A stretch of DNA of 62,890 nucleotides, the filler included. It is 9 parts of 9 records of this genome, joined end to end, with 100 filler letters (N's around TTAATTAATTAA, not from the genome) between each part and the next. Parts side by side here need not be neighbours in the genome. Positions count along the whole stretch, not along the records: positions 15,389 to 23,431 come from SRR15195285_512; 8 more parts are not named here. The stretch is one strand, 5' to 3'. The number at the start of each line of letters is the position of its first letter. Position 1 is the first letter of the stretch. The position numbers and the translations under genes were made by a program. Shown here piece after piece: positions 7,662 to 51,403 of this stretch. The notes below the pieces were generated by a model. It was not told the origin of the DNA, did no database searches, and saw nothing but the letters and a program-made list of their open reading frames with translations.

Positions 7662-7761
7662 NNNNNNNNNNNNNNNNNNNNNNNNNNNNNNNNNNNNNNN
7701 NNNNNTTAATTAATTAANNNNNNNNNNNNNNNNNNNNNNNNNNNNNNNNNNNNNNNNNNNN
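7662..7761. other. Artificial contig linker
   Basis: 44 N + TTAATTAATTAA (stops in all six frames) + 44 N. Confidence 0.98.
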
Positions 7762-10700
7762 GATCGTACTCCTGTCAGTGCATGCCGGGGTGGTCTGGAG
7801 AAAACTGCGAAGTGGACGTGAACGAATGTGAGATCGACAATGGCGGCTGCCATCCAGAGAGGGAGTGCATCAACATCGACGGTAGCAGCACTTGTGCTGA
7901 CACCTGCACAGCAGGATTTGTGCCAGTTGGCAACACGGACTGCCGAGACGTAGACGAATGTACTACCCCGAGTTTTCGGGTCAGCTATCCTGATTTCGTT
8001 GACATCAATGGCAACACTTGCGAATCGTTCTCTGAAGTATTCCAAGAAGGCTCGGTATTGTGCTCCATGGGCGGTCAGCTACCTATGCAAGGCGATCCCA
8101 GTAGGACGGCCCTAACAGACTGCGCTGTTTGCGGTGGCGGCCACAGACCATGCAGTGGGCAAGGAGACAACGTACACGACAGCACATGCGTAAACAGTGT
8201 CGGGAGCTACACCTGTGGCAGCTGCGGTGCTGGGTTCACAGGCGACGGTGACCACGGATGCCACGATATGTAAGTGACGACCTACGGTTGGGTTGCACTC
8301 TTGGCAACGCCTATGTTGCCGTTGGTGCTGCCGTCGTGTGCTGACTAATTCGACGAATTGGCGCAGTGATGAGTGCGCAGAAACGGACCCATGCCCAGAA
8401 CACACCACATGTACGAACGTTCCCGGGGATTACTACTGCAGTGCATGCGCTTTTGGGTATGAAAGCGACGGACCAGTGACCGGGGTGTTGGATGGATATC
8501 ACTTTGACGGCGCGCAATGTGTGAATCCTGATGACTGTCGCTTGACACCGTACGCAACACTCCCTGACGTGAATTTTGTACTTCGTACCTTACGAAGGCA
8601 CCGTCTGGGTTACAGTTCAGAAGCACTGCTGTCCCTAGCCTCGCCGGCTAACACGCGCTGCGATTGCGAAATGCAGGTGCTTCCACCAGGGTGAATGCAC
8701 AGACCTCGTTGGTGGCGTCTCGTGTACTTGCGTCGAAGGCTTCGTTGGTCCACGATGCGAAGTGAACGCGGATGACTGCGTCATGGATAGTGACGGCACT
8801 GATCCGTGTACATCCCAAGATGCCAATGCGATCTGCTACGACGGTGTCAACTCGTTTCAGTGTGACTGCAGCAACGGCTATTCGGGGGATACCTGTACAG
8901 ATGTTGTTGACCCTTGTACAACCAACGAGAACGAATGTTCTGAGCACGCGCGATGCGAACATATTGGCGATAGGCAGATTGCGTGTATATGCCACATCGG
9001 ATACAGTGGAAACGGCTTCGGGGATAACTGCACGGATGTCGATGAGTGCTTAAGCGAGCCATGTCAGAACGGTGGCACGTGTGTCGATAGGCTGAACGCC
9101 TACCAGTGCAACTGTGCACCAGGTTGGAAATCGGAGATGTGCGAAGAAGACATCAACGAGTGCGAAAGCAGTCCATGTGCGAACGACGGCGACTGCCTGA
9201 ACCCCGTAGACACCCCGGATACGTGGCTGTGCGCCTGTCGTGCTGGTTTTATGGATGATACTAGCCCTGGTGTCGATATCGGCTGTAGCATCGACATCGA
9301 CGAGTGCTCTTCGTCCCCTTGCGAAGGGGCAAATGCGACGGTAGTTCATCAGTGCGTAGAAGGCGACGACAGCTACTCTTGTCTGTGTGCTCCAGGGTGG
9401 GCAGGCGAGAACTGCGAAGAAGACTTTGACGAGTGTGCATCAGGTCCGTGCTTCAACCGTGCTCAGTGCAATCAGGACATAGGCGTTGATGCTTTCAGCT
9501 GCACGTGCGCTGATGGTTGGCAAGGCGAGCTGTGTGAACGTGACATTGACGAGTGTCACACTCGCACCAGGTCGTTTCAAAACGGTGTGTATACCGAGGA
9601 CACACTGGACCACGGTGGCTGTGACGAGCTCGTGGTCTGCATCAATTTGCCAGGCACATGGCAATGTGGCAGCTGCCCGATTCGCAACGAGACCAAAGTT
9701 CGCACCGTACCAAGTGGATTCATCGACCACTACTCGCTTCGGACTGAGTTTAGCCTTCGGTCGGAAGCGTCCCCTTGGGATGCTGCGCAAGAATTCTGCG
9801 GAAGATTTGGCCGGCAGCTCGTGTCCATTGTGACCGCTGAGGACAAGGTTGAGCTTCTCGGTCTGATCGATGGCCTCAGCGGGCGTGCATGGACTGGATT
9901 GCGCCGTGTACCGGGCAGCGATGGCTCAGCATGTGGCCAGAATATCAGCGCATCGAGTGCTTGCTGGTACTGGACAGATCCAGCTGCGACAGCTAACGCA
10001 CTACCGAACGGCGTTGCTTTTCAAGAAGTTGGATTGGGCGACTGCGTCTCCATTACAAGCACAGGCATACTGTTGGCAGAAGACTGCGAAGCGTCCGTAC
10101 CGGCGTACGTGTGCGGGGCTCACCCTGGACCCGCACCACGTGGCGGCTTCAATACGTGTGTTGATATCGACGAGTGTGGCATAGACAACGGCGGCTGCGA
10201 CAATCTGGCCTTGTGCACAAACGACTGGGGCAGCTATAGCTGTGGTCTCTGCCCCAGCATGTACACCAACGAAATTCCGGCTCTCGCAACAGCCCTAGAC
10301 TACATACCGTACACTGGGGACGGAAATGTAGGTTGTGTCGACGTCAATGAATGTGCTGCCAGTCGAGGCGCGTGCGATGGCAACGTTCCGTGCACGAACA
10401 CCAACGGTTCATTCTACTGTGGAACTTGCCCTCTAAGCGACATTTATGACGACGAAAACGCACCCGCTGGGACTGTTGATCGTTTCACTCCGTTCGTCGG
10501 GAACGGGACCATCGAATGCGTTGACGTCGATGAATGTCGCTACGACAACGGCGGCTGTGACATGTTGACAACATGCACCAATTCATTTGGGTCGTTTCAG
10601 TGCGGTGAATGCCCGACAGAGTATCCTGGACCGATTCCTGCGCACCATTTTTCCTTGCCATACACGGGCGATGGAACGACAGGATGTGTCGACGTCGACG

Positions 10701-13700
10701 AGTGTAACCTTGGTGCACCTCACAGGCGAAATGGTGGATGCCATGAGCTGACCACATGCATTAACCTGGAAGGTTCATTTACATGCAGTCCGTGTCCTGA
10801 CGGGTACACTGGCAACGGCATTACAGGCTGTGTGGATATAAACGAGTGCCATCTTGACGACCAGTTTGGGTCTTTGATGAAGTTCTACGAGCGATCGTTC
10901 AGCACGCTTGCTGACGCGACGATGCGTCTCAACACTCTGACTGGTGACCACGTTGCTTCCGAAGTCTGCAGCAGTGCGCGACAAGCCGCTCTGACTGACT
11001 TGTTGCCAGACCAAGAATACGAAGGTGCCTGTGACGACATGTCGGTGTGCTTCAATCGCCCGGGCACGTTCGAATGTGGCCAGTGCCCTGACGGATATAC
11101 TGGAAATGCCTACGAGCATACTGTCTATCCTAGCGGCACTTTTGTAGTGGGCAGTGGGTGTGCAGACATTGACGAGTGCGCGAGCAGCCCATGCAAGAAT
11201 GGGGCCGCATGTACTGACTCGGGAATAGCTGCCCGTGCTGGCACGCGCATCACCCGACCCGGTGACGATACCATCGCAGCCGATAGGTACCGTTGCACTT
11301 GCACTTCTGGGTATGCAAACGGCGAGTGTGGTTATTCTTTCATCGACGAATACGCCGACAGGTGTGACATATTTGACAGTCGCGCCAACCCTGACTACGG
11401 TGGCAATTGTGACATTGATGTCAATGAGTGCGATAGCAGCCCGTGCGACAATCAGGGCACCTGCACCGACTCAAGCAATGGCCTCGACAGTGGGATCCCA
11501 ACGAATGCATATACCTGCACCTGCGAGCCCGGATTTTCCAATGGCAAGTGCGACTACGAGTTCATCGATGAGGTGCGAGGCCAGTGCAGTCATGCCCTCG
11601 GTGGCAGCTGTGGCGTTGATGTAGACGAGTGTATTAGCCAGCCGTGCCGGAACGCCGCCGTGTGTGATGATTCGGCCTCAGATGGCGAAGTTTCGCCCGA
11701 TGCCTTCCGTTGCTCTTGCCAAGAAGGATTTGCAAACGGAATGTGTGTTCAACATGGTAGGTCTTGGAATTCCCTAAGTGAGTACAACGACAGGTGCAAC
11801 GTCCCCGAGGGTGGTACTTGCGACCAAGATATCATTGAGTGTGAAAGCAACCCTTGTCAAAACGAGGCTTCGTGCACCGAGTCTAGCACAGATTCCCAGA
11901 TGATTCGAGTCAATCCCAGACCACTGCTGTCGATCGACGGTAACGACAAGCGCATCTTCCGCACTGAAGACGTCGGGTTGCACCTAGCAACCGCGGGAGA
12001 AGAAGCCACGTTTTCCGTGAAGGCAGCATCTGCAGACGGGTCGGAAGTATCGGTCGACACAAGCGCACTGCATGTCACCCTGTCGCACCGTGAACGCGCC
12101 GGTGTCGTCGTTTCAGGAGCTTTGGCCCCGGTGCCTGGCGAGCTGAAACAGCAGGCTTCTTACGTCGCCATAACATCAGGACAGTACGACCTCTTGATCG
12201 CCAGGCGTGGTGTCATCAAGTACTCAGGTTCCGTCAACGTTGTGGCTGGGGCCATTTCAGCTGATGAGACAACCGCAAGCGGATCAGGATGGATAAGTGC
12301 AAATTCGGGCGTACCGGCCGAGTTCATCATCACGGCACGGGACGCGTACGGCAACAAACGAACGGACAGCATACGGGCCTTCACATATAGGGATGCACGT
12401 TACACCATGGCATGCATTGAGGTAGGTAACTGCGGCACTGTAGACGACTTGATTGGCACGGAACTCTCAAGGCTGCAGATCCAAGACTTCGATTGGACGT
12501 TCCGCGTTGATATTGTCACTTGCGGGACATCATGCAGTGCAGACGAATGTGCTGGGGGTGAAACTGTATCGAGTACAGTGTCGTGGAACGCGGGCTCTTC
12601 GGGCTATCCAGTTGAATACACTGCCACCACAGCAAACCAGTATTATCACATCGCAGTCTACTTGGAGAAGTGGGACTCCAACCACGAGTCCAAGATCGAA
12701 GAGACCCCGATCGGCAGCCCCAGCACCTGCATTTTCGCATCTGTCTCGGGGACTTCGCAACCTTACACATTCACAGACACCGAGCAGGAGTTTACCGCAG
12801 GTGGGGCGGAAATATTCCTTATTCAGGGGAATGGACAACCGGCCGCCACCTCGTTTGGGGTCACGTTTATCAATACGGAGACTCAACAGACATTATTGAC
12901 TACCATCGTCCCCGACAACGCTGGGAACTTCGTGGTGCCTGTGAACCCTGAGCAGGCAGGCGTGTATACTGTTTACGCTGTCTCGTCAACCGGCGTGTCT
13001 GTAGACGGATCTGGAGCGACTGTCATTACAGTTGCACCAGGATCCTTCAGTGCTGCAACCTCTGAGATCACTGGAGCTGGTGCAAGTTCTGCAGCTGTCG
13101 GGGAACTCAGCACTTTCATCATCATCGGGCGTGATCCTTACGGCAACCAAGTGCGTTCGGGTGGGCCTGAACTCACCGTGAGTGCCGTGGGCGCAAATGT
13201 GACCGGCGCTGACCCAGGTAGCCTGCCGTCGGTGACTAACAACGGTGATGGGTCGTATACCGGCAGCTACGTGGTGCGTACGGCCATCAGCATTGAGCCG
13301 TACGACAACTTCTGGGTTCGCGATGATAACATTTTGACACACGTCCGTCCGGACGATCCGTTTCAGCTGCTGATTCAGGAGGTGGACACGCTCGAGCACA
13401 TCGGTGTGGACCCAGCTCGTAGCCCATTGACTGTCTATCCGGCCGCCGTGCCTGACTACCAGTACACGTGCAGCTGCGTGGATGGCTTTGCAAACGGTAT
13501 GTGCTACTACAATTTCATTGGAGAGTACGAATCGGAGTGTAGCGTGACAGCAAACGGCAACTGCAACATCGACGTAGACGAGTGCGCTAGCAACCCCTGT
13601 GAGGAACCGGGCACTCTTCAGTGCCTCGACTACGTGAGTAAGTGGGCTTGCCAGTGTCAGCCAGGTTGGAAGTCCACCAGTACTGATGATTCGCAGCCAG

Positions 13701-15288
13701 ACGAGGACACGGTGGCCGGAGGTATCTCTCGCGCTGAGCATGTCCTGAACGGCACTGGCTGGTACGAGCCTCAACACGGTACACAGATTCACGATGGGGT
13801 TGCGGTGTCTCTATGGAACAGTTCCACGCACTTCCATGGCCCTTGCGACATCTCGATTGATCCGTGCAGTGCGGCCGAGATGCACGACTGCGACGACGTG
13901 CACAAGTCTGCTTGCGAGCATGTCGGACCTGGGCTTCACACATGCCTGTGCAGAATCGGGTGGCAAGGAAATGGTACGCACTGCTACGATATTGACGAGT
14001 GTCAGAGTAGTCCGTGCGAAAATGGCGGAGTGTGCACCGAATCAAACTGCGACGACCCTAACGCGGCTGAGTCTGTGAAAGCTGCATGTAGACGACATGC
14101 TCAGGACTTCACACAGAACGACCCGATGATTCCAATGGATCGGTACAAGTGTGACTGCGCAGCTGGGTTCGCGAATGGTATGTGTGCATCCGGTTGGGAT
14201 CAGAAGTCAGATATCTACACGGCTGAGTACCAATCCGACTGTACTGTTGAGCTTGGTGGGCATTGCGACATTGATATCGACGAATGCGTCTCACTACCAT
14301 GCGACAACGCCGCCACGTGCACGGATTCGCGAGCGACTACCACCTGGAACAACATCACCGTATCATTTGATGCCTATAGTTGCGAATGCAGAGCAGGCTT
14401 CGCTGACGGAGCATGCTCGTACGACTTCATCGCCGAGTACGATGTGGCCTGTGCGGTCACTGAGAGCTCGGTTGGCGGAACACGCCCTCTGGATAGAACC
14501 GAATTCGAGGAAGTTGCTTTGGCAGGAAACTGCATTATAGACGTGAATGAATGTGACAGCAACCCCTGTGAAAATGGTGCGACGTGCACTGACTCTACAA
14601 TGCAAACGGAGTGTTTCGTCAACGAAGACGGTGCGTGGCTATGCCACAGCACTGAGCGTTCCGTCACCACAACTTTCTACTGTGGTGACACGATTTATGA
14701 CTCAGACGGAATAACCGTACTGGCGTGCAACAGCACACAGTCACTGCTCGGCCATCAATACCATTACGTTCCTGGTTGGACTACGGACGACGGTGAGTTG
14801 AACAGCAGACATATACAGTATCCGGACAACACCACACTGTTCGGTGAACGAAGTGACGAACTGTCTCCTGGACTATTCTACGGGGTCGGTGTTAGCCTTG
14901 AGCAGTGCAGTAACGCTGCAGATGCTGGCATAGATGCTGGCTGCGACGCATTTGAGTACGGGGACGGCATGTGTAGGCTTTATTCAAGTCTTGATGGCAG
15001 CACTGCACAGAAAGCAAGTGGCGAAACCATGTACTATCGTGATGATACCGTCCGTGGGTGCACAGATCCTAAAGCGTACAACTATAACCATTTTGCTGAG
15101 CAAAGTGATGGTACATGCGTCTATCCGAAGGTGCAAGTACATGAATATTCATGCGCATGTGCGCCAGGCTTTGCCAATGGGCAGTGCAGAGCGTATGATT
15201 TCATTTCGCTCTACAGGACGCAGTGTGAGGTGGAAACAAGTTCTAGTACTGAGCTGTCCGGCAATTGTGACGTCGATGTGAACGAGTG
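7762..15288 (+). CDS. Giant EGF-repeat (fibrillin/Notch-like) surface protein with C-type lectin and filamin/Ig-like domains; partial at both ends; introns 8270-8366 and 8550-8676
   Basis: Dozens of D[IV][DN]EC Ca-binding EGF motifs. Splicing AT|GTAAGT..GCAG|T restores CHDIDEC, and CC|GTACGC..GCAG|G restores TPCFHQGEC. CTLD-like WDAAQEFC..LVSI..AWTGL..YVC at ~9730-10120. Filamin-like FIITARDAYGN / FIIIGRDPYGN / NNGDGSYTGSY at ~11950-13450. Confidence 0.9.
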
Positions 15289-15388
15289 NNNNNNNNNNNN
15301 NNNNNNNNNNNNNNNNNNNNNNNNNNNNNNNNTTAATTAATTAANNNNNNNNNNNNNNNNNNNNNNNNNNNNNNNNNNNNNNNNNNNN
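15289..15388. other. Artificial contig linker
   Basis: N44-TTAATTAATTAA-N44. Confidence 0.98.
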
Positions 15389-15389
15389 T

Positions 15390-18300
15390 CGCTCAACAGC
15401 AGGGCTAGTTGTGTCGACATCAATGACCGTTGACGTGATCTTATCAACGTCACATCAGCCTGGGGTGCTGGACACAGTACTCCTTGGCGGAGACCTCGCG
15501 TTTACGATTCGTCGTTCTGGTCGGGCTGCGGGTGCAGGCATGCCAATGGTTATCAGCGGCCAGGCTGCGCCCAGCGCAGCACGTGGAGGCAGTCTGGTGT
15601 TGCGCCCAGGCAGCGGTTCTACCGGCGGAAATGTGGTGTTCGCCTCTCCTACAGACACACCGATCGTCACTCTTGTAGATAACACGGTTGCTGTGCATCG
15701 CTCGTTGCTTACACCGTCGATCGGTGCAGGTGCATCGACAATAGATGCGGGGGCAGTCGCCGCTATGGACATCGTGGCAACAGCCGACATTCAGTCGGCC
15801 AATTTTATCGCAGGCGATTCTCTGCTAACCTCCAACGTACACGCAGCTTCACAGACTCTGAGCGTCGGCGGCAGCCGTCCGCTGATACTGTCCATGCCTG
15901 CACGATCGGGCACAAGCACGGTAGTTGACGGAAACTGCGTCGACTGCACTACTTTGCACTTTCACGGCCAAGCCGCTTCGGGAGCTCTGCCGAACAACGA
16001 AGGGGGCAGCATCATTTTACGTCCCGGTCAGCATGGTGCCGATGGCAACAGCGATGGCAGTGTGACCTTCATGGACGGCCGAGGCAACGACGTTATCAAG
16101 GGTGTAACCGGTGAACTTGATTCTGGTGGCGTCCTCGCTTTGCAGAGCTGGCAGCTTGGGACAGCCTCATATGGGTCATTTAAACTGGCTCGCGACGCTC
16201 CCATTGCTCTCAGCTCGCAGCATGAAGCAGGCACAACTTACTTCAAAGGACAGAAGCCAGGCATTGGTGCGCCGGGTGGTGACTTGCGAATTCGCGGTGG
16301 TGCCACAGGAGCAGCAGCTGCGGCCGGCGGCGATATTTTCATTGATGCGGGCAGGTCCAAGGTTCAGGGTGGAGCTGCCGCCCTGTACGGAGCATTGCTC
16401 GTGGGCACTATTTCTGGCACTGTCAATATTGGCCAACCAACATTCACAACAACAATCTCAGGTACGGCACAGGTGCTTGAGAATCTTGTAGTGTCTTCTC
16501 TCGATTCTGAGTCGGAGAGTCTCGGCTTCTGTGATTCCAGCTCTTGCTACCTTATGAAGGGCGAGTATGCTGGCCACACAGTCGGCGCTGGGACATCTAT
16601 TACCTTCAGGGGACAACAAGGGGCTGTAGGCGACAACGCTGGCGGTGACTTGATCTTGAGGGCAGGTGAGGACCGAAATACGCATACCCCAGGCCTGGTA
16701 ACCATTAGTACCGCACGAACCGGCGATACTGCCTCCTCGGAAGTCCTTGAAGTGGGACCGCTTTACGCATGTCCAGAATACGGCTCGGATCCGTGCCGTC
16801 GGTTTACGACGTGGACAAACGATGCCGATGCAGTGTACGTGAAAAGTGCTCAGCACACTCTGTACACTGAGTCGCTGGACGCTGGCAGCGCAGGCATCTA
16901 CACCACTGTCGCTCAAGCCCACGGGTACGAGGCAACAACAGCTGTGCAGGCTGCGACAATGATCGTTGACGATGGCCCCGCAACTCTCGTAACCCCGACA
17001 CTACGCTCTGGCGGGGATGAAATCCAAGTTCGCGGCTCGTCTGACTCCACAGCAACGACGATCACTCGCGGCTCACGCGCGCAGCGTAGCGACTTCGCTG
17101 TCGCAGGGCAGGCCAGCAGCACTGGGCTTGGTGGTAACATGGTCTTGCAAGCTGGCGGCAGCACTACAACGCAGGGAAGAGTGGTGTTCGCGAGTGGTGA
17201 TTCCAGTGCATGCGAACGTGAGGCTGACGGCGAGTACTCGACCTGCTCCTTGGCTTACGTGGACAGCATTGGGGGCGTGTTCCACCAGCAAGTTTTGACT
17301 CCTGCTGGTATCGAAGTGAACGGCGAAGTTCAGGGCGGGAGAATCACTACGACCGTGGCCACGGCTTCGTCCCAGGTCTCTGCAGTCTCTGTGGTCGCTA
17401 CGGCTTTTCTTTCAGCGAACACGGTCACAGATGCATCAGTGCAATTCGGTGGTGATTCAACATTCACGCTGAACCGCCTAGACGTGACAAGCGGCAGCGG
17501 CAAATCCATGTCGCTGCGTGGGCAGAATGCAGCCACTGGCGTGGGGGGTGATGTGGTCGCTCTGCCGGGGCTGAGTGCAGGTGCGGGTGCAGCTGGCGTC
17601 GTCAGCTTAGCGACGACAACGACGGGGAACTCTGCCGTGACAGTGCGCCGATCTTCTGTACATTTCTCTCAGGCAATTCAAAGTACGAAGGCTGTCGATG
17701 TTGCAGATGGGACTGTTGGTACAACCGGTAGATTTGTGGTCTCCGGTGGAAGCATTGGTATTGCAGCAGACAGTACTTCGCAAAATATTCAGGCGGCATC
17801 CTATGTACAGCTGCAGGAGTTGCTTGGTGAAACGGCATCCGCACCTGTATCTGCCCCGACAGTCTCCCTCGGATCTGCTGGAATCGGCTTGACCATGCGC
17901 AGAGCGCAGCATGGTTCTTGGGATGGAACAGTAACAGCTCTGCGCGGCCAAACTGGCGGTACCTCTGCTAACGGTGGCAACGTCGTCCTACGCGCCGGTG
18001 GCGGCAGCATTACTAGCCTCGCAGGCAGAATCATGTTGAAGGATAGCGCGGGTGCTGTTGGAGTGGTGATGCGCGCCTCTACTCGAGAGGTCAATATTGA
18101 AAAGGCGCTGGTGACGCAGTCAATCGATAGTCAAGCCGGTACAATACTTGCAGATACTGTGCTTGCGAACACCTTGTCGAGCACTGCTGGCGATTCGACG
18201 GCCTCGATGGCTGCGCAGACTTTGGCCGTGTCAACAGCTGCAATAGTCGGCGCGCTGCGCAGCGCTTCTGATACGCTGGAAGTTGGCGCCGGTAATTCAT

Positions 18301-21300
18301 TTGTTCTCTCGCGCCCGGATGTGCCGCCGAACTGCCATAATATTGGCACGGGCAGTACCGCCGAAGGAGGCTACATGACACAGGGCGAGTGTGAGCGCAC
18401 CGGCTATCAATGGGATGACACCACTGGCTGCGCAGACGGGGACGGTCTCAGTCGCAGTGAGTACACGACTGCGGCAACGTGCCTAGGGACTGGCGATGAG
18501 GCAAACGACTGGAGACCAGACAGCACAGCTCGTCTTAAGATGATGGGACAAACAGGGCTTGCGGGTGGAGGAGGAGGCAATATTGTCGTCCGGCCTGGCG
18601 AGGGTGGTGCTGGCGCACCAGGTGGGGACGTTAGGGTTGCAGATGCAGATAGCAACACTGTGATCCTCGCAACGAACGATTACGTCAGGACCGCGGCTGT
18701 GATGAATACCGAGAGCATAAATGCCGGGACACACACTGTACAGGCGACTCAACTGACAGGCGGCACCGTGGCAGCAACAAACGGAGCAACGGCGCAAAAG
18801 GTTGTCGCTGATCAGGCTGCGACGCCGCAGCTAATTTCAGGCACGGCTCCACTCGGGCTCGGTGACACGGCTGCATTCGTTGCCAAGCGCTCCCCGCACT
18901 CCACTGGCGCTGGCACGATGTTCTCGATTCGTGGACAATCAGGCGCCGAGAGTGCGGATGCGGTGGGCGGGCCTGTGCAGCTGAAGGCGGGTGCGGGGGT
19001 CGGTCAGGGGACTGCGGGCGCATTGGAACTAGAGTCTGCATCAGGAATACCAGTGGTCCGTGTGGATGCAGGTGGTACACTCGCCGTCAGCCGGATGCTC
19101 CGCACGCGGGCATGGGAAGCAACGCAGATCGCCACGAGCGGGACTGCCAGTGCCGCGAAAATTTCTGCGCCAAGCTTCGACGTTAGCTCGTCGTTGAAGG
19201 CGCCGGCGTTGAAAGCGTCAGACGCTAGTTCACAGTCGCAAACGGTTCTTTTGGGGTCGGATAGCGGATTCGACGTCAAGCGGCCTGCTGCTCCAGGCTA
19301 CCGTTGTCAAACCAGCTTTGGGACTATTGCAACCGCTGCAACGAGCCAGAACGCGTGCGAGCGCACTGGGTTCGAGTGGGCGAACTCCGTCGGTTCTGGC
19401 ACATGCTCGATACCAATCCTGGCAGCCACGGTTACATCATCGACTGGGGCAGCGGTTCCGGTCGACTCCGGTGGTGGTACCGCGTGCTGTCAACCGTGGA
19501 AGGCAATTGATGGTATTGCTGAGAGCGAATCTGGGTTCATCGCGGCCGATGCAACGTACTGGCAGTCCACGTATGCCGTCACTTCTGTCGCAGATTTGAA
19601 TTTCGACATGCACTTGCGAACATCGTTGACAGTGCGGGGCGTTGTAGTTCACTGGCGAAGAGGCCCAACTCAAGTCACCGTGTGGAGCTCACCCGATGGC
19701 GTTACGTATGTAAGCCAAATCCAGTCGGGGGTACCTGATGACTGCCAAGCAAGTACGTGCACTTTTGGGGAGAAGATGACCACCATCATGTTCTCCGACC
19801 CGGTGTCGGCCAAATACATTAGAGTCAGCATGACGAGCATTGACGCTGTTGGCATATATGCCATCCACGTGGTGGGTACGGGCAGCACGCTTGCCGCGTG
19901 TGAGACCACTGGCAACTCATGGGTGCTCCCGGACGGGTCCGAGTTCTACATAGCGGGTCAGGGCGGCTTTGCCGGATCTGGTGGCGGTGATGTCGTGTTC
20001 GTGACTGGATCGGGAGCAGCAAATGGCGACGTCCTTGTCCAAGGTGCAAGTGGAAACGCCGCAGTTGTCACCGTGGTCGACTCAGGCGTGAACGTTCATC
20101 AGCCGCTACACCCCTGGGCCGGTGTGAACGCTGACAGGAGTTCCATTGCAACTACCAGTGCCGCAACTGCAGGCATGGTCTCCGCTAGCGTGCAGCTGAT
20201 AGCTGTTCAGGTTCCAGCTACGATCTCTGTCGCGACACCCTTGCTGCTACCTGCACAAAACACTGACAACACAGTACAGGTCGGTGGGCCCGGTGAATTG
20301 GCCGTTCGGCGCACAGCACACCAGAGCAGCCAGGGGACCGCGTTCGTGATAGCCGGACAAGCGACTGGTGCGGACAACTCCAACGGCGGTAATGTTATCC
20401 TCCGTGGTGGAAGCAGCTCTAGCACCGGTGGACACGTGCGACTGCAAGGTGTTGACTCAACCAGCGCAGAAATATTCTCCGTGGCTCCAGCTGCTGTGCA
20501 AGTCTCGCTCCCTCTTACCCTCAGTGATACCCTTGACGCTGGCGGGGAATCCATTGCTGTTGGTGCTGCGCTCACGGCTACTGGCTCTAGCACAGAGGTA
20601 GATGTCGCTTCCACCACTGCAACAGCCGATCGCCTCCAGGCTACTGCAGCCATCGTCACCCCTGTTCTCAACCCCACGGCTGCTACGGTTGTACTTGGTG
20701 GTGATGGTGTAGCAAAACTTGCTCGGCCTGTGCACACGACGGGCGCGGGCGTGGACCTGCGCATACAAGGGCAGTCCTCGAATGCTGGCGATGATATAGG
20801 AGTCGATGCCGGCCACGTCGTTCTGCGACCAGGGGCAAAAGCCGGAGGGTCCGAAGCGGATAGCGGTGTGATCTCGGTGCAGTCTGCTGGTGGGACGTCA
20901 ACCATGCTGGACGCAGTTAGCGGTGGCCTGCGCGTCCCGATAGGTTCGTCTCTGCGGACCGTGGATACGCTGAAGGTCACCGGCTCTCGAGTTGCGAAGC
21001 CACCTGCACCAACAGTGGTTTCTGACGACTCTACAGTTATTACGCTCACCACGGAGCTGGTGTTGCTCGACTGTGACGACCACGATAGCGCGCGAAACGA
21101 AGTCTTTTCACCAACATTTGCTGCGGGCGTAGATGGTCAGGTGGTTCGAATGGTTAACGTGGGCGAGGATGTGTGTGTTTTCAAGGGGCCTGAACCACTT
21201 CAGGTGGACCACCCCACGGACACTTCAAACAACAACTTCAGGCTACTCGCTGGAAACCAGGCTCAAAATCAAGCCTTCCTTCCCACTAGTGGCACACCAG

Positions 21301-22889
21301 TGTCGTTTATGTATTACCACACGCCATCAGGCATGACGTGCTCAGAGTTCAACCGGGCCGACAACCCACATACCCACCAGACCACGTGTGAGGGCGGTGG
21401 ATGGTATCAGGTGGTGGAGGCTCCAGCTACGTACTGTGACAACACGTGTGCCGCGGACGGGCTTCGCTGGTGCCAGCATGAGGCAACTCATGCAGCGCCG
21501 TCGGTATCTGGCGTCGCAGCTGCCTCGATCAATGATGATGCGCGCGTGGACATAGTCAGCGTCTCCTCTGCAGGAGCCATCTCTTGGTTCGAATCGGCAG
21601 CAGCAGGAGGACTGCAGTGGACTCAGCACGAAATCGCCGCCGATGCAGCTGGTGCTCGCCACGTGCTTGTGCTGGATATCGATGGCGATAATGACCAAGA
21701 CGTGGCGACCTTGGTTGATTCTTCAATAGCAGGCCGTGTGGACTTAGTATGGTATCAGAACGGTGGGAGTCCGTCCTTTTCATTCGCAGGGCCGTACACA
21801 ATCAAGTCGGACATCGGCGAGGGAGCCACCTACAGTCTAGCCATGGTTGCCGGAACCGTCGGTACTGTGATTGGAGATGACATTGTCGTCGTGTCATCGC
21901 AAGACACGGCCATCCTGATTTTCGAATGTGCAGCTGGTATGGACTGTACCGAGGCTTCGCACTGGGGTGATTCTGGCACCCCTGTGGAATTATCTTCGGC
22001 CAATCAGCATATCCCTGCGGGCGATCTACTGGATGATATCGTGCTTGCCGACCTGGACGCGGACACAGACCTCGATATAGTCACAGTTTCGCGAAGTGAC
22101 AGCTCTGTGCGATGGTACCAAAACCTCGGCAGCAACCTATGGTCAAAGCATGATGATGTAAACAGTGATCGGGCCAACTATTTCATTTCACAGGCGCCTC
22201 AGATTCTCAGTGGAACACGGCTGAAACTCGCAGCGTTTGACATGAATGGGGACATGGCTAGTGCAGAGTCAGACCCGGCCAATGTGGTTGGACTAGACGT
22301 GGTTGTGTCTTCTCCAGGCAACGGACGACTGTACGTGCTACAGAATCTTGGCCAAATTGGCTGGTCGCAAATTACGATGAATTCAGACTCTCCTGGAGTC
22401 ACCGCAGTGGTGGTGGCTGACGTCGACAACGACGGCAGGCAGGATGTAATCGCCACAGGGGAATCGAGCATGAAATACTACTTGACCGGCGGAGGCGGCA
22501 TTGACGGTGTAGATCACCCTGGCCATGACGGCCAGACATGGACAGCCATTACAGCTACAGAGTTCACCGGCATATGCGAATACGACGACGAGAGTGACTG
22601 TAGTACCAACGGTGGGTCATGGGATACTGCGACTGAGACGTGCGAAGACGTGCCCGCAACACTCGCATGCTACGCCAATTCAGGTGTAAACAAACCCAGC
22701 TTTAACAGTACAGGAGGCTCGTTCGTCCAGGGAGGAGGTGCACGTGGCTGGGCAGCACCGAGTATGATCGCCGCGGCGAATGTTGCAGGCACCGATGGCT
22801 TGGACATCGTGTTCGCGTCCGACAGCTCTGAAGTGGATAGTGGCACAGGTTACGTTGGAGTGTACGAGTCGATCAGTGGAACATGCTAA
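15390..22889 (+). CDS. Giant (>2490 aa, 5'-partial) beta-rich repeat protein, tail-fibre/adhesin-like, with F5/8-type C (discoidin) domain and C-terminal FG-GAP/VCBS beta-propeller
   Basis: Uninterrupted ORF open from the contig edge. 12 repeats of hxGQ..GGx[VIL]x[L]xxG. Discoidin motifs KAIDG..YWQS..SPDGVTY..AKYIRV at ~19430-19880. DxDxDxxxD[IV] blades (DIDGDNDQDV, DLDADTDLDI, DVDNDGRQDV) at ~21500-22870. Confidence 0.85.
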   Translation, partial: RSTAGLVVSTSMTVDVILSTSHQPGVLDTVLLGGDLAFTIRRSGRAAGAGMPMVISGQAAPSAARGGSLVLRPGSGSTGGNVVFASPTDTPIVTLVDNTVAVHRSLLTPSIGAGASTIDAGAVAAMDIVATADIQSANFIAGDSLLTSNVHAASQTLSVGGSRPLILSMPARSGTSTVVDGNCVDCTTLHFHGQAASGALPNNEGGSIILRPGQHGADGNSDGSVTFMDGRGNDVIKGVTGELDSGGVLALQSWQLGTASYGSFKLARDAPIALSSQHEAGTTYFKGQKPGIGAPGGDLRIRGGATGAAAAAGGDIFIDAGRSKVQGGAAALYGALLVGTISGTVNIGQPTFTTTISGTAQVLENLVVSSLDSESESLGFCDSSSCYLMKGEYAGHTVGAGTSITFRGQQGAVGDNAGGDLILRAGEDRNTHTPGLVTISTARTGDTASSEVLEVGPLYACPEYGSDPCRRFTTWTNDADAVYVKSAQHTLYTESLDAGSAGIYTTVAQAHGYEATTAVQAATMIVDDGPATLVTPTLRSGGDEIQVRGSSDSTATTITRGSRAQRSDFAVAGQASSTGLGGNMVLQAGGSTTTQGRVVFASGDSSACEREADGEYSTCSLAYVDSIGGVFHQQVLTPAGIEVNGEVQGGRITTTVATASSQVSAVSVVATAFLSANTVTDASVQFGGDSTFTLNRLDVTSGSGKSMSLRGQNAATGVGGDVVALPGLSAGAGAAGVVSLATTTTGNSAVTVRRSSVHFSQAIQSTKAVDVADGTVGTTGRFVVSGGSIGIAADSTSQNIQAASYVQLQELLGETASAPVSAPTVSLGSAGIGLTMRRAQHGSWDGTVTALRGQTGGTSANGGNVVLRAGGGSITSLAGRIMLKDSAGAVGVVMRASTREVNIEKALVTQSIDSQAGTILADTVLANTLSSTAGDSTASMAAQTLAVSTAAIVGALRSASDTLEVGAGNSFVLSRPDVPPNCHNIGTGSTAEGGYMTQGECERTGYQWDDTTGCADGDGLSRSEYTTAATCLGTGDEANDWRPDSTARLKMMGQTGLAGGGGGNIVVRPGEGGAGAPGGDVRVADADSNTVILATNDYVRTAAVMNTESINAGTHTVQATQLTGGTVAATNGATAQKVVADQAATPQLISGTAPLGLGDTAAFVAKRSPHSTGAGTMFSIRGQSGAESADAVGGPVQLKAGAGVGQGTAGALELESASGIPVVRVDAGGTLAVSRMLRTRAWEATQIATSGTASAAKISAPSFDVSSSLKAPALKASDASSQSQTVLLGSDSGFDVKRPAAPGYRCQTSFGTIATAATSQNACERTGFEWANSVGSGTCSIPILAATVTSSTGAAVPVDSGGGTACCQPWKAIDGIAESESGFIAADATYWQSTYAVTSVADLNFDMHLRTSLTVRGVVVHWRRGPTQVTVWSSPDGVTYVSQIQSGVPDDCQASTCTFGEKMTTIMFSDPVSAKYIRVSMTSIDAVGIYAIHVVGTGSTLAACETTGNSWVLPDGSEFYIAGQGGFAGSGGGDVVFVTGSGAANGDVLVQGASGNAAVVTVVDSGVNVHQPLHPWAGVNADRSSIATTSAATAGMVSASVQLIAVQVPATISVATPLLLPAQNTDNTVQVGGPGELAVRRTAHQSSQGTAFVIAGQATGADNSNGGNVILRGGSSSSTGGHVRLQGVDSTSAEIFSVAPAAVQVSLPLTLSDTLDAGGESIAVGAALTATGSSTEVDVASTTATADRLQATAAIVTPVLNPTAATVVLGGDGVAKLARPVHTTGAGVDLRIQGQSSNAGDDIGVDAGHVVLRPGAKAGGSEADSGVISVQSAGGTSTMLDAVSGGLRVPIGSSLRTVDTLKVTGSRVAKPPAPTVVSDDSTVITLTTELVLLDCDDHDSARNEVFSPTFAAGVDGQVVRMVNVGEDVCVFKGPEPLQVDHPTDTSNNNFRLLAGNQAQNQAFLPTSGTPVSFMYYHTPSGMTCSEFNRADNPHTHQTTCEGGGWYQVVEAPATYCDNTCAADGLRWCQHEATHAAPSVSGVAAASINDDARVDIVSVSSAGAISWFESAAAGGLQWTQHEIAADAAGARHVLVLDIDGDNDQDVATLVDSSIAGRVDLVWYQNGGSPSFSFAGPYTIKSDIGEGATYSLAMVAGTVGTVIGDDIVVVSSQDTAILIFECAAGMDCTEASHWGDSGTPVELSSANQHIPAGDLLDDIVLADLDADTDLDIVTVSRSDSSVRWYQNLGSNLWSKHDDVNSDRANYFISQAPQILSGTRLKLAAFDMNGDMASAESDPANVVGLDVVVSSPGNGRLYVLQNLGQIGWSQITMNSDSPGVTAVVVADVDNDGRQDVIATGESSMKYYLTGGGGIDGVDHPGHDGQTWTAITATEFTGICEYDDESDCSTNGGSWDTATETCEDVPATLACYANSGVNKPSFNSTGGSFVQGGGARGWAAPSMIAAANVAGTDGLDIVFASDSSEVDSGTGYVGVYESISGTC

Positions 22890-23144
22890 CGTTTTATGGC
22901 ATCTGATACCACGTCCAATGGAGCAAACCGATTTTTAGGACTGTCCATTTCGAAACAAACCATGATGTACTTACACGTCAGGCGTTACAGCTTAGTGTTC
23001 GCAGCGTACTCTCTGATTGACTTGACGCAGATCGGTAAGGCAATCCTGGACGACGGTAGGTGAAAGCGTAAACAATGCACAAAGATGATTGTCGAAACTA
23101 CACTGGGTCATTACTAGTACTACAAATCTTTCTTCTGGGAGCAT

Positions 23145-23431
23145 GGGCGGTGGTGGGACGGGGGGGCGGGGGGGCGGGTAACTCCCGCAGTTCTAGGGCA
23201 GGAGCTAGCTAGGCGTCAGTTTGTATAAAAAACGAGACCTACTGAAGCCATTCGTCCGCCTGAATGTGCATCGGTGATCAAGAACTGTCATTTCCCCAGA
23301 GTGAAACTGATCAGCGGTACTGATCCTTGGTGAGTGGTATGATGCGTCCCAAACTCTTACGCTGCGTTCTTCTCCTTTGGAACTACTATTATTGTGTGTG
23401 CGTGGGGAGGGGGGGGGGGGGGGGGGGGGGG
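23145..23431 (+). repeat. G-rich tracts and poly-G at contig end
   Basis: GGGCGGTGGTGGGACGGGGGGGCGGGGGGCGGG at ~23145-23178; near-pure G run 23404-23431. Confidence 0.7.
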
Positions 23432-23531
23432 NNNNNNNNNNNNNNNNNNNNNNNNNNNNNNNNNNNNNNNNNNNNTTAATTAATTAANNNNNNNNNNNNN
23501 NNNNNNNNNNNNNNNNNNNNNNNNNNNNNNN
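23432..23531. other. Artificial contig linker
   Basis: N44-TTAATTAATTAA-N44. Confidence 0.98.
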
Positions 23532-28930: not shown

Positions 28931-29030
28931 NNNNNNNNNNNNNNNNNNNNNNNNNNNNNNNNNNNNNNNNNNNNTTAATTAATTAANNNNNNNNNNNNNN
29001 NNNNNNNNNNNNNNNNNNNNNNNNNNNNNN
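28931..29030. other. Artificial contig linker
   Basis: N44-TTAATTAATTAA-N44. Confidence 0.98.
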
Positions 29031-32805: not shown

Positions 32806-32905
32806 NNNNNNNNNNNNNNNNNNNNNNNNNNNNNNNNNNNNNNNNNNNNTTAATTAATTAANNNNNNNNNNNNNNNNNNNNNNNNNNNNNNNNNNNNNNN
32901 NNNNN
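32806..32905. other. Artificial contig linker
   Basis: N44-TTAATTAATTAA-N44. Confidence 0.98.
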
Positions 32906-39365: not shown

Positions 39366-39465
39366 NNNNNNNNNNNNNNNNNNNNNNNNNNNNNNNNNNN
39401 NNNNNNNNNTTAATTAATTAANNNNNNNNNNNNNNNNNNNNNNNNNNNNNNNNNNNNNNNNNNNN
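39366..39465. other. Artificial contig linker
   Basis: N44-TTAATTAATTAA-N44. Confidence 0.98.
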
Positions 39466-39988: not shown

Positions 39989-42900
39989 ATGGCCGGCAAA
40001 GAGCGCACGGCAGATGAGGCCATCTTGCAGATTGGCGACGCATTTGCGTTGGAATGCCTGCCGCCGAGGTACAAGCAGGACGGCGGCGGACAGAAGGTGG
40101 GATTTGTAGGTGCACGCCCCTCGAGCCACAGCTGCTTCGTAGATTTCGTGCCGGTGGGGACCGAAGGGCGGATCGAGTGTGGCTCCGGCAGGCCGCCCAA
40201 CCCAGAGCTCAGCCGCTTCACTCTCTGCACACCCAACCAGTACATTGGCTCCAAGACGCTGCGTGCGTTCGAGCAGTATTCCAGCGGGAATTACGCGGAA
40301 GGCGAGCAGCTCAAGCTAGCCGCCGAAAAGGAGGACGCCAGCAATGACGCCGTGATGCGCTCTTCGCTAGGCAAAGCTGCTCTCTTCGGCGGCGTGTTCC
40401 AGCTGCAGGTGCGTGTAATTCTAGCAGCAGTTTTCTGACATCTCCATGTGCTGCGGGCTCACGCATGATCCACATGTCTCGGTGAATCGTAGCATCCTTC
40501 GGGATTCTTCTTAGACCTTAACAAGCAGATGGCGGTCGAGGAGCCCGCTGCGCTACGCTGTGGCCTGGCTTTGCCGCACGAGCGGACGAAGCACACATGG
40601 TTTCGTTTTTTGCCGGGCTTCCGAACGAGGAAGGAGGGCGAGCCCATACGAATGGGTGACACAGTAGTTGTCCAATCTATGAAGAAATCATCGAACTTGA
40701 ACATGCACATTGGCAAGGACGACGAAGGCGAAACCAATGACTTCAAACCCCGAGCCGAACTGAACTTGTGTACTCCTGTGGATGAGATGGATGTGGGCAA
40801 TACATGGCGCAGGCATTTTCGCATTGTGCCAGTGGCAAAATTTAGCACCTCCGAGAAGTCACAGGGCGACGCGATTGTGCGTGGCGGCGACTACGTCGAG
40901 GTGTTCCACCGGCAGTCGCAGGGTTACTTGGCAGTGGATCGCAGACATCACAACAGGCAGTGTCGTTTGTTTCGTCCAATACCGGACAGCAAGGAGGCTG
41001 ATCCGGTGTCAACGATGGCTTCGGAATTGGTGTGGAAGCTGATGACACCTGAAATGGCGTGGAGTGGAGCCAACGTGACGATTGGTGGGCGGGATGACGA
41101 CAAGACGTCGTCGCAAGCTCTGTGCTTGAATGCTGCAAGTCAGTGCGGCGACGACTTGTTCCTTGCGGAGGGCGAGGATGGGTATCTTGAACTCGTACTC
41201 AATGCTGACAACCTGGCTGCGCAGTGGTACCTGCAGCCCTTTGACTCGGTCGATGGAGGCCTCAGGTATGATCTGACCAAGTTCTACTTAGTCAATGCGG
41301 AAACGGGCAACGTTCTGCAACAGGGAAAGGAAGATGCGGAAAAGGATCCCGGGGCGGGTGACGGTCACGCATGGTTTCAGTTGAAGGCCATCTCGGCGAC
41401 AATCGAGCACGAGAGCGATGTGTTTGTCTTGCACCCGCTAAACTCGGCGGGCGAGTCCAGCCCCTGGCTAACAGCCTTTCAGACTGCTGAAGAAGGACTG
41501 GATAGCCTCTGGGAATTTCATAAGGAAATGGAGGACATTTTAGCGATGGACAAGTCAGCAGGCGGGCAGGCAAAAGGAACCACCACTCCTGCGTCGCCAA
41601 AATCCGGTAAGGGCGCAAGCAAAAGGCGCCGACAGAAGAAGGGCAACAAACACATGCTCCGGCAGCTGGAAGATGGGCTGAAAACACTTCCTCACCGAAA
41701 CCTGCATCTAGGGTTTGCACTCGACAGAGATCATCTTCCTCCTTCCTCCTTAAAAGTACGCAGACTACTCGCTGCCGCTTGCTGTCTCTTCCCTACATGC
41801 GTAGCAGAGCTACTTTGTCCAATGCTCTTGAGCTCTGTCCAGTGTGCTCTTGTTTGCGTGCTGCATGAGTAATTCGCCTTTTGGGCTCGGGCTTGACAGG
41901 ACACACGAACGAAGGAAGAGAGGATCGTGGACTTGCTGTCCGACTATGTCAGTCCACCAACACACCACTGGGACGACTGGGCTGGTCCAGTTCCAAACGA
42001 TCTGCGCATTTTTATCGGCAATGTGACGACTGGTGCGGGCGACAATCCTTTGTTGTGGGATGGTGTTGTGCGTGTGCAGCAGCAGCAGCTTCTGGCCGGT
42101 CTAGGGATGATCCACTTCCTCGTGCACATGCTGCAGTCTTTGTTCTGCTTGTTCCCACCAGAAAAAGTCACCGATCAAGAATATCCTCACCTTTTGCTCG
42201 TGGTGAAAGGAACATTCCATTTGCTGAAGTGCTTGGTGAAGGGATCACTCACTCGAAACAGTATCCAACTGTACTCACACCACATCTGGCTTACCGAGAT
42301 GGTGCAATACACTCAGTTTAAGGTTGTGCACTGCATCACGGAGATGTTCAAGGATACGCCTGCTCTATTGCATAGTGCCGAACTGGTGATATTTATTGAC
42401 ACGTTCTGGGCACGAGCTGTTGACACGAGGCATTCGCGCTTCTTGGACTTTCTACGAGGTATTTGCGTAGATGAGATGAACAGGCCGCTGGACTCAAACC
42501 AAGAAGAAGTCGTGAGTGCCATTGTCAACAACCTTCCGGACGATCTCTTCGAACAGAAGCCACGTGAAATGGCGATCGCAGTTCGCGCGGACGCGGCCGG
42601 CGGAAGTGGAGATGCGCAAGGATACAGATTCAGCTTAGCTCTGGTGGAGCTAGCGGCTGCAGTATGTGATGGTAGAATGCAAACTGGACTACGGCTATTC
42701 CTGCGTGATGCGCCGATGTTTGGCTTCACTTACAGCAATATCTTATCAAAGATTAACGATGAAGTTGCGACGATAGCCGGTTACGCACCTAGCAGCAGTC
42801 ACGATGTGCGTCGAGTATACCTCAAGGCTATGTGGGCTATGTACGTGGACAGACAATATTCTGCAATGGAGAAGCAAACGCGGCAGCCGACAAGGATTTG

Positions 42901-51303: not shown

Positions 51304-51403
51304 NNNNNNNNNNNNNNNNNNNNNNNNNNNNNNNNNNNNNNNNNNNNTTAATTAATTAANNNNNNNNNNNNNNNNNNNNNNNNNNNNNNNNNNNNNNNNN
51401 NNN
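51304..51403. other. Artificial contig linker
   Basis: N44-TTAATTAATTAA-N44. Confidence 0.98.

Follow-up and report, generated by a model that had tools for sequence, protein, structure and literature searches.

Introduction

Trimeric phage-like fibres, and heads made of FG-GAP or discoidin domains, are known kinds of protein architecture. A collagen triple helix, the S74 intramolecular chaperone and the N-terminus of the T7 fibre are trimer-specific contexts. Myelin regulatory factor (MYRF) is reported to be a eukaryotic protein with a triple-beta-helix derived from a phage tailspike and an ICA (S74) domain (PMC3742443, PMC8326128), a sign that eukaryotes are able to adopt parts of phage tailspikes. 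Here we describe a gene for a giant fibre-like protein, P0001, which occupies 15390..22889 of a 62,890-base stretch of assembled DNA (the window). We lean slightly toward the view that it encodes part of an extracellular fibre of a marine protist, in which three identical chains with a phage-type shaft module carry several lectin-type domains for multivalent binding away from the cell.

The fibre protein resembles phage tail fibres and tailspikes (T7 gp17-type, collagen-like, and endosialidase-type with Peptidase_S74) in having a sequence-homologous repeat module, a parallel intertwined homotrimer, which is predicted here, and binding domains at the distal C-terminus. Unlike them, it is not encoded in a recognisable phage, and it adds Cys modules, an FG-GAP propeller, a C-type-lectin-like domain and a probable discoidin domain. 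It also runs to 4,700-4,900 residues, whereas the longest of the 150 best listed matches to its repeat has 3,974 residues. No virion- or baseplate-attachment domain was found by Pfam or PHROG in P0001 or its longer relatives P0004 and P0155, all three of which probably lack the true N-terminus, and Pfam reports no Peptidase_S74 chaperone in P0001, P0155 or the relative P0003.

The likeness to MYRF is that of a eukaryotic protein with a trimerising element derived from a phage fibre, as predicted for the fibre protein. In contrast to MYRF, the fibre protein has neither an S74 nor a DNA-binding domain and uses a different module repeated at least 23 times; the S74 domain of this assembly lies on a separate fibre-like open reading frame (ORF) on another contig (31275-32804, minus strand). 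Integrin alpha-type and other FG-GAP propeller lectins (2bwm, 4tqj, 9etn, 9p96) share with it an FG-GAP_3 match, an all-beta propeller model and D-x-D/N-x-D loops, although the template modelling (TM) scores reach only 0.39-0.51 on a low-confidence model. The leg domains, transmembrane segment and beta subunit context of integrin alpha are missing, and the propeller sits at the end of the fibre. YadA-type trimeric autotransporter adhesins are alike in principle, with a long trimeric stalk (predicted in our case) that presents binding heads; unlike them, the fibre protein has its binding head at the C-terminus, and Pfam reports no YadA anchor, Hep_Hag or HIM in it.

Results

A Gly-rich repeat module makes up the shaft

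The fibre ORF lies on the plus strand and comprises 2,499 codons, or 2,492 when counted from a GTG at 15411, with a TAA stop at 22887-22889. Already at the second base of the contig (15390) the frame is open, and the contig end thus truncates it at the 5' side, so that it represents the C-terminal part of the protein; the seven codons ahead of the GTG read RSTAGLV, matching the longer relative P0004. Glycine and alanine each make up 12.8% of P0001, serine 10.6%, threonine 9.9% and valine 9.6%, and its C-terminus reads ...ESISGTC. A first-pass annotation, made from the letters of the window, had described a long Gly/Ala/Thr/Ser/Val-rich frame without introns. The frame is indeed unbroken over 2,492 codons, and contigs from one DNA run and three metatranscriptome runs are colinear on it with no joints, leaving no detectable intron.

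The same annotation had counted 12 copies of a GQ..GG repeat, and all 12 of the xxGQ cores that it named were located in P0001, at residues 47, 183, 277, 398, 563, 701, 843, 1043, 1172, 1513, 1646 and 1784, with spacings mostly of 125-165. The repeat is Gly-rich and about 130 residues long, with a core of the form h-x-G-Q ... G-G-x-h-x-L-x-x-G. The unit consensus reads T-P-x-h ... h-G-G-D-x-x-F-T-h-x-R-P-x-H-x-S-G-x-G-x-x-F-x-I-x-G-Q-x-G ... G-G-D-h-x-L-R-P-G-x-G ... G-x-V-x-h ... I-D-A-G ..., and past IDAG the unit runs on as a Thr/Ser/Ala/Val-rich stretch. Pairwise, the units are only 19-30% identical, with five invariant positions (a G, a Q and three further G). The repeats of P0001 thus appear from their divergence to be old and not the product of recent duplications.

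A profile (A1) was constructed from 11 of the 12 units of P0001, leaving out the short unit 3. It recovered the 11 full units in P0001 and the short unit at an expectation value (E) of 0.007. In the upstream part of the gene, which lies outside the window and is represented by P0004, A1 found 11 further units at E 1e-5 to 2e-14. It matched none of 20 composition-preserving shuffles of P0001 and no other six-frame ORF of the window. Because the profile finds 11 units that were not used in building it, and none in the shuffles or the other window ORFs, the repeat lies far beyond chance.

Along the plus strand of the window, unit 1 (15450..15809, residues 14-133, ISGQ) matches the profile at E 5.5e-34, a value for a unit used in building it. 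Unit 2 (15834..16235, residues 142-275, FHGQ) has a small C-x2-C piece inserted into the loop that joins R-P to G-Q, and unit 3 (16227..16358, residues 273-316, FKGQ) is short and consists of the core only. The profile also places unit 4 (16488..16880, residues 360-490, FRGQ), unit 5 (16983..17381, residues 525-657, VAGQ), unit 6 (17397..17795, residues 663-795, LRGQ), unit 7 (17835..18215, residues 809-935, LRGQ), unit 8 (18432..18809, residues 1008-1133, MMGQ) and unit 9 (18816..19202, residues 1136-1264, IRGQ). Unit 10 is divided. Its N-terminal strand block ('LLGSDSGFDVKRP', 19227..19289) was read by eye, since its profile fragment is not significant alone, and the motif is also present in P0003; the remainder (19845..20195, residues 1479-1595, IAGQ) is found by the profile, as are unit 11 (20232..20621, residues 1608-1737, IAGQ), which was the unit folded as three copies, and unit 12 (20652..21005, residues 1748-1865, IQGQ).

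The module belongs to a family that includes phage tail-fibre-type proteins

A profile search of the repeat, which the first-pass annotation had proposed as a check, was performed by HMMER against 1.84 billion cluster representatives. A1 matched 307 protein clusters at E≤1e-3; of these, 75 have E≤1e-10 and 7 reach E≤1e-30. All of the 150 best hits, those listed, were scanned against Pfam. The clusters include proteins with phage-fibre hallmarks: six of the 150 carry Pfam domains typical of phage fibres or trimers, namely Phage_T7_tail (P0014), Collagen (P0040), Peptidase_S74 (P0104 and P0138), Phage_base_V (P0116) and Phage_depo_C (P0127). DUF2793 occurs in two, P0006 bears FG-GAP as P0001 does, and 131 carry no Pfam family. 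P0104 also matches the MYRF ICA chain 7dc3 at E 1.5e-5. Matches to 'tail' PHROGs were obtained for two of the first 31 A1 hits; that of P0014 is to a 'tail protein' PHROG at 6e-12. The repeat itself has no Pfam family, no PHROG and no PDB relative by sequence, and PDB sequence searches with A1, A3 and P0014 gave nothing meaningful.

Three kinds of N-terminus recur among the 150 listed hits. Nine start with the motif YPxxID ... N-x-x-R-D-A-I-x-A-I-E-x-E-L-G, and five with MAIQYYMR.../VDWVVND. Another eight are proteins of about 700 residues with a signal-peptide-like start (…SLQLGxLWVNxI…) and GQ-type repeats of about 55-residue period. The ~700-residue family (P0027, P0032, P0050, P0054, P0059, P0061, P0076, P0084 and P0120, with relatives P0157-P0170) has no Pfam family and is found on 2-3 kb contigs of marine collections.

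A reciprocal profile, intended to guard against Gly-rich bias, was built from 71 units of 18 phage-type hits; these units had been chosen by A1, so the two profiles are not fully independent. It found P0001 at E 7.5e-73, with 11 of its units at E<1e-3, and matched none of 100 shuffles, nor reversed P0001, nor an epidermal growth factor (EGF) protein.

Relatives of one hit, P0035, sit in three IMG/VR contigs. One of these, L027 (202.6 kb), contains two adjacent fibre-like genes (L027:10001-17346, plus strand), one with each of the first two N-terminal motifs given above, which confirms a viral setting for part of the family. The ORF with the MAIQYYMR start (L027:13237-17346) has about nine AQ-type repeat units and is 50-56% identical to the hits P0103 and P0060. 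Neither gene is annotated by PHROGs; their neighbours match PHROGs for thymidylate synthase, DNA polymerase exonuclease, dNMP phosphatase and dUTPase. IMG/VR scans with P0014, P0016 and P0104 found no relative. P0031 matches Bacillus and Campylobacter phage genes, mostly beside its repeat rather than on it. Profile matches in both directions place the shaft module in the same sequence family as the repeat of phage tail-fibre-type proteins. The description of P0001 as phage-tail-fibre-like, with which the first-pass annotation began, is borne out to the extent that its repeat is shared with hallmark-domain proteins and with genes of the viral contig L027.

Three copies of a unit are predicted to intertwine

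An AlphaFold2 monomer model of units 11-12, from a 23-row alignment, was poor, with a predicted local distance difference test (pLDDT) of 59.6 and a predicted TM score (pTM) of 0.41. Folding of the repeats as ordinary monomeric globular domains, which the annotation had set against its own proposal, is therefore not what the monomer model gave. The poor model argues against an ordinary self-sufficient globular repeat; the thin alignment could also account for it.

Three copies of unit 11 (168 residues) gave an interaction prediction score from aligned errors (ipSAE) of 0.81 in 3/3 runs, as compared with 0.00 for the best of three controls, in keeping with the trimeric fibre that had been proposed. 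The predicted trimer has about 1,000 inter-chain contacts over almost every residue, a partner pLDDT of 79-80, and at least 93% of contacts shared between runs. The contacts of lowest error between chains involve residues 42-47, 56-64 and 70-74, and the invariant G46, Q47, G57, G64 and G71 are located there. In this model the conserved motif looks like the core of a three-chain interface. Of 30 proteins whose solved structure is a pair of one chain, 21 reached this ipSAE mark in a benchmark, and none of 23 solved as single chains did; in a eukaryotic benchmark the counts were 17/29 and 0/30, where the eukaryotic passes may reflect memorisation by the model.

Insertions and the distal end carry lectin-type domains

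The loop between the R-P and the x-x-G-Q strand is an insertion hot spot, as read from the sequence in units 2, 8 and 10. Cys module 1 (CERTGYQW; 18333..18482, plus strand, C975-C1024, 50 residues) lies between 'FVLSRP' and 'LKMMGQ' of unit 8. The same loop of unit 10 accommodates a nested insertion of 212 residues (19290..19925, plus strand) that comprises Cys module 2 (CERTGFEW), a probable discoidin domain (19542-19838, plus strand, Pfam F5_F8_type_C) and Cys module 3 (CETTGNSW). The three CE(R/T)TGxxW modules are at residues 994, 1316 and 1497. The discoidin match in P0001 has E 5.9e-6 and 26.9 bits, just below the 28.2 cut-off; it scores 24.4 bits in P0155, also below the cut-off, and 32.7 bits in the orthologue P0003, above it. 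In the relatives P0011 and P0003, other Cys-rich inserts occupy the matching loop. The Cys modules and, probably, the discoidin domain of the first-pass annotation are thus present; they are nested in loops of repeat units and do not form beads of their own.

Beyond unit 12 is a 'tip' domain of about 100 residues (21036..21335, plus strand, residues 1876-1975, VLLDCDD...FMYY) without a Pfam family. In an iterative search among the proteins of this analysis it was common only to P0155, P0003, P0006, P0005 and P0011, and P0005 and P0011 end right past it, without a propeller. An identity with the end domain of phage-type fibres, suggested by a resemblance seen by eye, was rejected, as the search found the tip only in this eukaryote-like group. 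A Cys-rich linker (21339..21473, plus strand, C1977-C2021) follows.

The final ~450 residues (21528..22886, plus strand) correspond to an FG-GAP beta-propeller according to Pfam, a structural model and Foldseek. PF13517 (FG-GAP_3) matches P0001 in three stretches at E 9.1e-20 and 71.5 bits, against a cut-off of 26.9, and P0155 at 76.1 bits. An AlphaFold2 model of residues 2010-2492, from four homologous rows, is all-beta with 30 strands (pLDDT 54.5, pTM 0.61). Foldseek comparison of this model with the PDB put seven-bladed propellers on top at TM 0.3-0.5, and the FG-GAP-type matches included aldos-2-ulose dehydratase, CRTAC1 (9etn), the Psathyrella velutina lectin (2bwm), the Agrocybe lectin (4tqj) and integrin alpha4 (9p96). 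Loops of the D-x-D/N-x-D type are present within blades at 2089, 2214, 2277 and 2337, and a fifth regular-expression match, at 2249, falls between them. The profile match and the model together make an FG-GAP propeller a safe assignment for the head. The earlier description of an FG-GAP head of about seven blades agrees with these matches, and seven blades, counted by eye and from the low-confidence model, are likely.

The complete protein is about twice as long as P0001

Close relatives were sought by a word-indexed search of 5.8 billion proteins. P0004 (3,622 residues, 99% identical) overlaps P0001 residues 1-1196 with one mismatch, at an offset of +2364, and adds 2,364 residues upstream. 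P0155 (4,693 residues) is 84% identical, covers 100% of P0001 and is the sole match among longer proteins, and a search at similar length yielded, besides P0004, only P0003 (2,468 residues, 70% identical). By these overlaps with P0004 and P0155, which come from two other assemblies, the whole fibre protein is predicted to have 4,693 to about 4,856 residues and at least 23 repeat units. The >2490 residues and 12 repeats of the first-pass annotation are therefore lower bounds.

Past the equivalent of P0001 residue 1196 (P0004 ~3561, window ~19000), P0004 switches frame and ends in unrelated sequence, whereas P0001, P0003 and P0155 keep the frame where P0004 leaves it. An indel error in that assembly, or else a frameshift of the strain, is the probable cause. 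At the other side of the ORF, contigs of three of four runs match to 15427 and then continue into the junction of a near-identical upstream unit. The contig break at the 5' end arises because this unit, shown in tandem by P0004, offers an alternative continuation at 15427.

The upstream part also contains an insert that matches lithostathine 1qdd (C-type lectin fold) at E 4.8e-7 and, more weakly, domains of the mannose receptor and DEC-205; Pfam Lectin_C is not reported in P0004 or P0155. Residues 1-310 and 1030-1300 of P0004 consist of a second repeat type of about 50 residues, ending ...PT..R.h.FPDESG.h, which precedes and interrupts the GQ units and has no Pfam match. An ORF with EGF and filamin repeats at 8762-15288 was considered as the N-terminus of the fibre gene and rejected: it lies on another contig, and P0004 and P0155 have 2,200-2,364 residues of other sequence in that place.

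The closest relatives (P0003, P0004, P0155, P0006, P0005 and P0011) share Cys-rich modules and the tip domain, which are absent from the phage-type hits. A metagenome scan with P0003 returned one contig of 1,470 bases (L001), without gene context.

Composition and occurrence point to a marine eukaryote

The fibre contig has a G+C fraction of 0.572, compared with 0.524-0.578 in the other eight contigs of the window. Synonymous codon usage of P0001 correlates with that of the 12 other large ORFs at a mean r of 0.70, the top value among the 13. The tetranucleotide profile correlates with those of the other contigs at r 0.70-0.81, where their mutual range is 0.60-0.87. The other large ORFs bear eukaryote-type domains, including an IP3/ryanodine receptor, EF-hand ion channels, Ank-IBR, Myb, PH and eukaryotic aspartyl protease.

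P0001 had no match by tblastn in 50,697 GenBank phage records and no relative in a scan of IMG/VR. Among 185,579 prokaryote species genomes (one per species) there was no close relative, only 25 loci with generic FG-GAP sequence 23-38% identical to P0001. Atlas clusters resembling a 421-residue part of P0001 are labelled Eukaryota, a weak indication with a score of 0.92, few labelled members and no taxonomic placement; for the neighbouring ion channel, Atlas also gives eukaryote clusters without taxonomic placement.

The fibre stretch is contained in 19 marine or seawater runs from 15 studies, seven of these runs being RNA libraries. In three metatranscriptome runs, the contigs line up colinearly with it in 23-26 of its 30 bins, and contigs from metatranscriptome runs stop at 22974-23080 in the 3' flank. 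Taken together, these results suggest that the fibre gene belongs to a marine planktonic eukaryote. Of the eukaryotic ownership claimed by the first-pass annotation, the parts that stand are the agreement in codon usage and composition and the lack of a close prokaryote or viral relative; no linked eukaryotic gene was found. The k-mer check that it had proposed puts the tetranucleotide profile within the range of the eukaryote-type contigs.

Other features of the window and its neighbouring genes

The window consists of nine separate contigs of 3.8-11.8 kb, joined by eight identical 100-base spacers (N44-TTAATTAATTAA-N44) at 7662-7761, 15289-15388, 23432-23531, 28931-29030, 32806-32905, 39366-39465, 51304-51403 and 58534-58633. 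The six-frame-stop linker TTAATTAATTAA makes false ORF ends, for example at 15340, and gene adjacency across spacers is meaningless. The contig with the fibre gene is the third of the nine (15389..23431, 8,043 bases), with spacers on both sides, and the neighbouring ORFs of the window are on other contigs. Its plus-strand 3' flank (22890..23431, 542 bases) contains a G-rich tract at ~23146-23180 and ends in a terminal poly-G run at 23406-23431 that closes the assembly. Either a sequencing artefact or a genuine G-tract may underlie the poly-G, and 23392-23431 was treated as a repeat when runs were compared. A small cluster of indels and substitutions at 22589-22598 differs between runs, and single DNA contigs depart from the window sequence at 18561, 20378 and 22894, where strain variants or paralogous copies are possible. 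Antisense ORFs at 16458-16922 and 20207-21052 lack a Pfam family and were dismissed as chance frames in GC-rich coding DNA.

On another contig, P0156 (31275-32804, minus strand, 509 residues) is a 5'-open ORF. Its Cys-rich repeats (C...AADQxSC..AG.CTYTPDD) resemble the inserts of P0003 and its GG-type core is weak; it also has a Peptidase_S74 chaperone (E 7.6e-12) and, at the C-terminus, a coiled-coil-like tail. By its predicted domains it is a second phage-style fibre gene of the same assembly. Pfam reports no DNA-binding domain in P0156, which is thus not MYRF-like. It was also considered as a carrier of the GQ repeat, and this was rejected on marginal profile scores.

A giant ORF of more than 2,190 residues at 7762-15288 (plus strand) runs off the 3' end of its contig and contains many EGF and Ca-binding EGF domains, a filamin repeat and a C-type-lectin-like stretch; upstream of 8762, apparent further EGF coding sequence is broken by a short non-coding piece, possibly an intron. 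An IP3 (inositol trisphosphate)/ryanodine-receptor-like gene extends over three plus-strand ORFs (40529-41872, 41927-48115 and 48279-49472) with gaps of 54 and 163 bases, which are probably short introns, unlike the intron-free fibre ORF.

Discussion

The arrangement that we favour would make P0001 the distal half of a giant extracellular protein of ~4,700-4,900 residues from a widespread marine planktonic eukaryote. Three parallel chains would intertwine into one long fibre, with a shaft of at least 23 modules of ~130 residues in series. Within each module, the strands h-x-h-x-G-Q, G-G-x-h-x-L-R-x-G and G-x-V-x-h would pack against their equivalents in the other two chains, and the loop insertions (small disulfide modules, the discoidin domain and, further upstream, the C-type-lectin-like domain) would stick out sideways in threes. 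The far end would be formed by the small tip domain and the FG-GAP propeller with its putative calcium sites. Such a fibre probably lies outside the cell and would bind glycans or surface ligands; its likely role is multivalent binding of these at a distance from the cell, for example in adhesion to particles, prey, bacteria, mates or substrate. The shaft module itself may be of phage or bacterial origin.

Several observations weigh against this reading. P0004, P0155 and P0010 all start at about the same internal-looking point, and none of them showed a signal peptide, an anchor or a true N-terminus. A recognisable phage domain is present in only a minority of the family hits, and neither P0014 nor P0024 gave a tblastn match in GenBank phages. 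The trimer score is the model's own confidence, calibrated on two copies and not three and obtained with the unit alignment unused; the propeller model is likewise of low confidence (pLDDT 54.5), and its Foldseek scores are modest (0.3-0.5). As to ownership, the fibre contig holds one intron-less ORF with no eukaryotic gene physically linked to it, and the assembly strings short contigs together; agreement in composition is partly circular if the contigs were grouped by composition. Presence in contigs of RNA libraries is no proof of transcription. Finally, FG-GAP, discoidin, the C-type-lectin fold and fibre repeats all occur in bacterial or viral giant proteins too.

These points bear on three other explanations. 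The nine contigs are unlinked and the fibre contig offers a single intron-less ORF, so this contig could come from a bacterium, jumbo phage or giant virus, have ended up among eukaryotic contigs by grouping, and encode an ordinary prokaryotic or viral giant adhesin or fibre; the repeat family does take in phage-type proteins and a viral contig, and FG-GAP propellers at 23-38% identity are found in 25 prokaryote loci. We think this quite unlikely. Codon usage and tetranucleotides fall inside the range of the eukaryote-type contigs, none of the prokaryote species genomes, IMG/VR and the GenBank phages yielded a close relative, and P0003, P0004, P0155, P0006, P0005 and P0011 have Cys-rich modules and a tip domain in common that the phage-type hits lack. 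The C-type-lectin-like insert upstream, the second fibre-like gene with a similar Cys-rich repeat on another contig of the assembly and, weakly, the Eukaryota labels of the Atlas look-alike clusters argue in the same direction. The protein could also be fibrous and adhesive as a single chain, whether a beta-solenoid or beads on a string, with the trimer an artefact of a model that favours side-by-side beta-rich chains. Domains of the FG-GAP propeller, discoidin and C-type lectin kinds are normally monomers, and in P0001 and its orthologues nothing specific to trimerisation (collagen, S74 chaperone or coiled coil) was found. A high score of the trimer tool is, by the tool's own statement, no evidence of binding, and its calibration was on pairs. 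Against this are the difference between 0.81 and the 0.00 of three controls, contacts that extend along the whole chain and centre on the invariant motif, the poor monomer model, and the occurrence of homologous units in proteins with a collagen triple helix, an S74 chaperone or a T7 fibre N-terminus. We consider the single chain quite unlikely, and the least probable of the alternatives.

A trimeric fibre might, on the other hand, be structural, as part of a cell covering, scale, flagellar hair or extracellular matrix, with its lectin-type domains used for self-assembly. The very large size with at least 23 structural modules would suit such a role, as would the shorter relatives P0005 and P0011, which stop at the tip domain and have no propeller, and the secreted-looking ~700-residue proteins with shorter-period repeats in marine eukaryote transcript-like contigs. 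A fibre that bears three different lectin-type domains suits the binding of external ligands at least equally, and we consider a structural role unlikely, if the strongest of the alternatives. Returning to the multi-lectin fibre of a marine protist, a bolder version may be put forward, tentatively. In it, a widespread marine protist took over a phage tail-fibre shaft module, one that belongs to no described family and has no solved structure, and multiplied it more than 20-fold. The product would be a homotrimeric extracellular fibre of ~4,800-residue chains, with each of three kinds of lectin-type domain shown three times; with at least one further phage-style fibre gene, the one with the self-cleaving S74 chaperone, this would constitute a eukaryotic family of phage-derived cell-surface fibres.

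No description of such a eukaryotic fibre or of the GQ repeat was found in literature listings and the opening parts of abstracts, a source that gives weak evidence of absence. What would be new is a repeat family without a Pfam, PHROG or PDB entry, its use at least 23-fold in a ~4,800-residue eukaryotic protein, and the nesting of lectin-type insertions within it. If the proposal is true, the fibre would join MYRF as a second, very different example of phage fibre architecture put to new use in a eukaryote, in this instance extracellular and of extreme size. An undescribed repeat family of 307 clusters would then link receptor-binding proteins of uncultured phages with surface proteins of marine eukaryotes, and the structure of the module would allow many unrecognised phage tail-fibre genes to be annotated. 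The gene is present in marine metagenomes and metatranscriptomes of 15 studies, and the fibre may matter for how an abundant planktonic cell sticks to particles, prey, bacteria or viruses.

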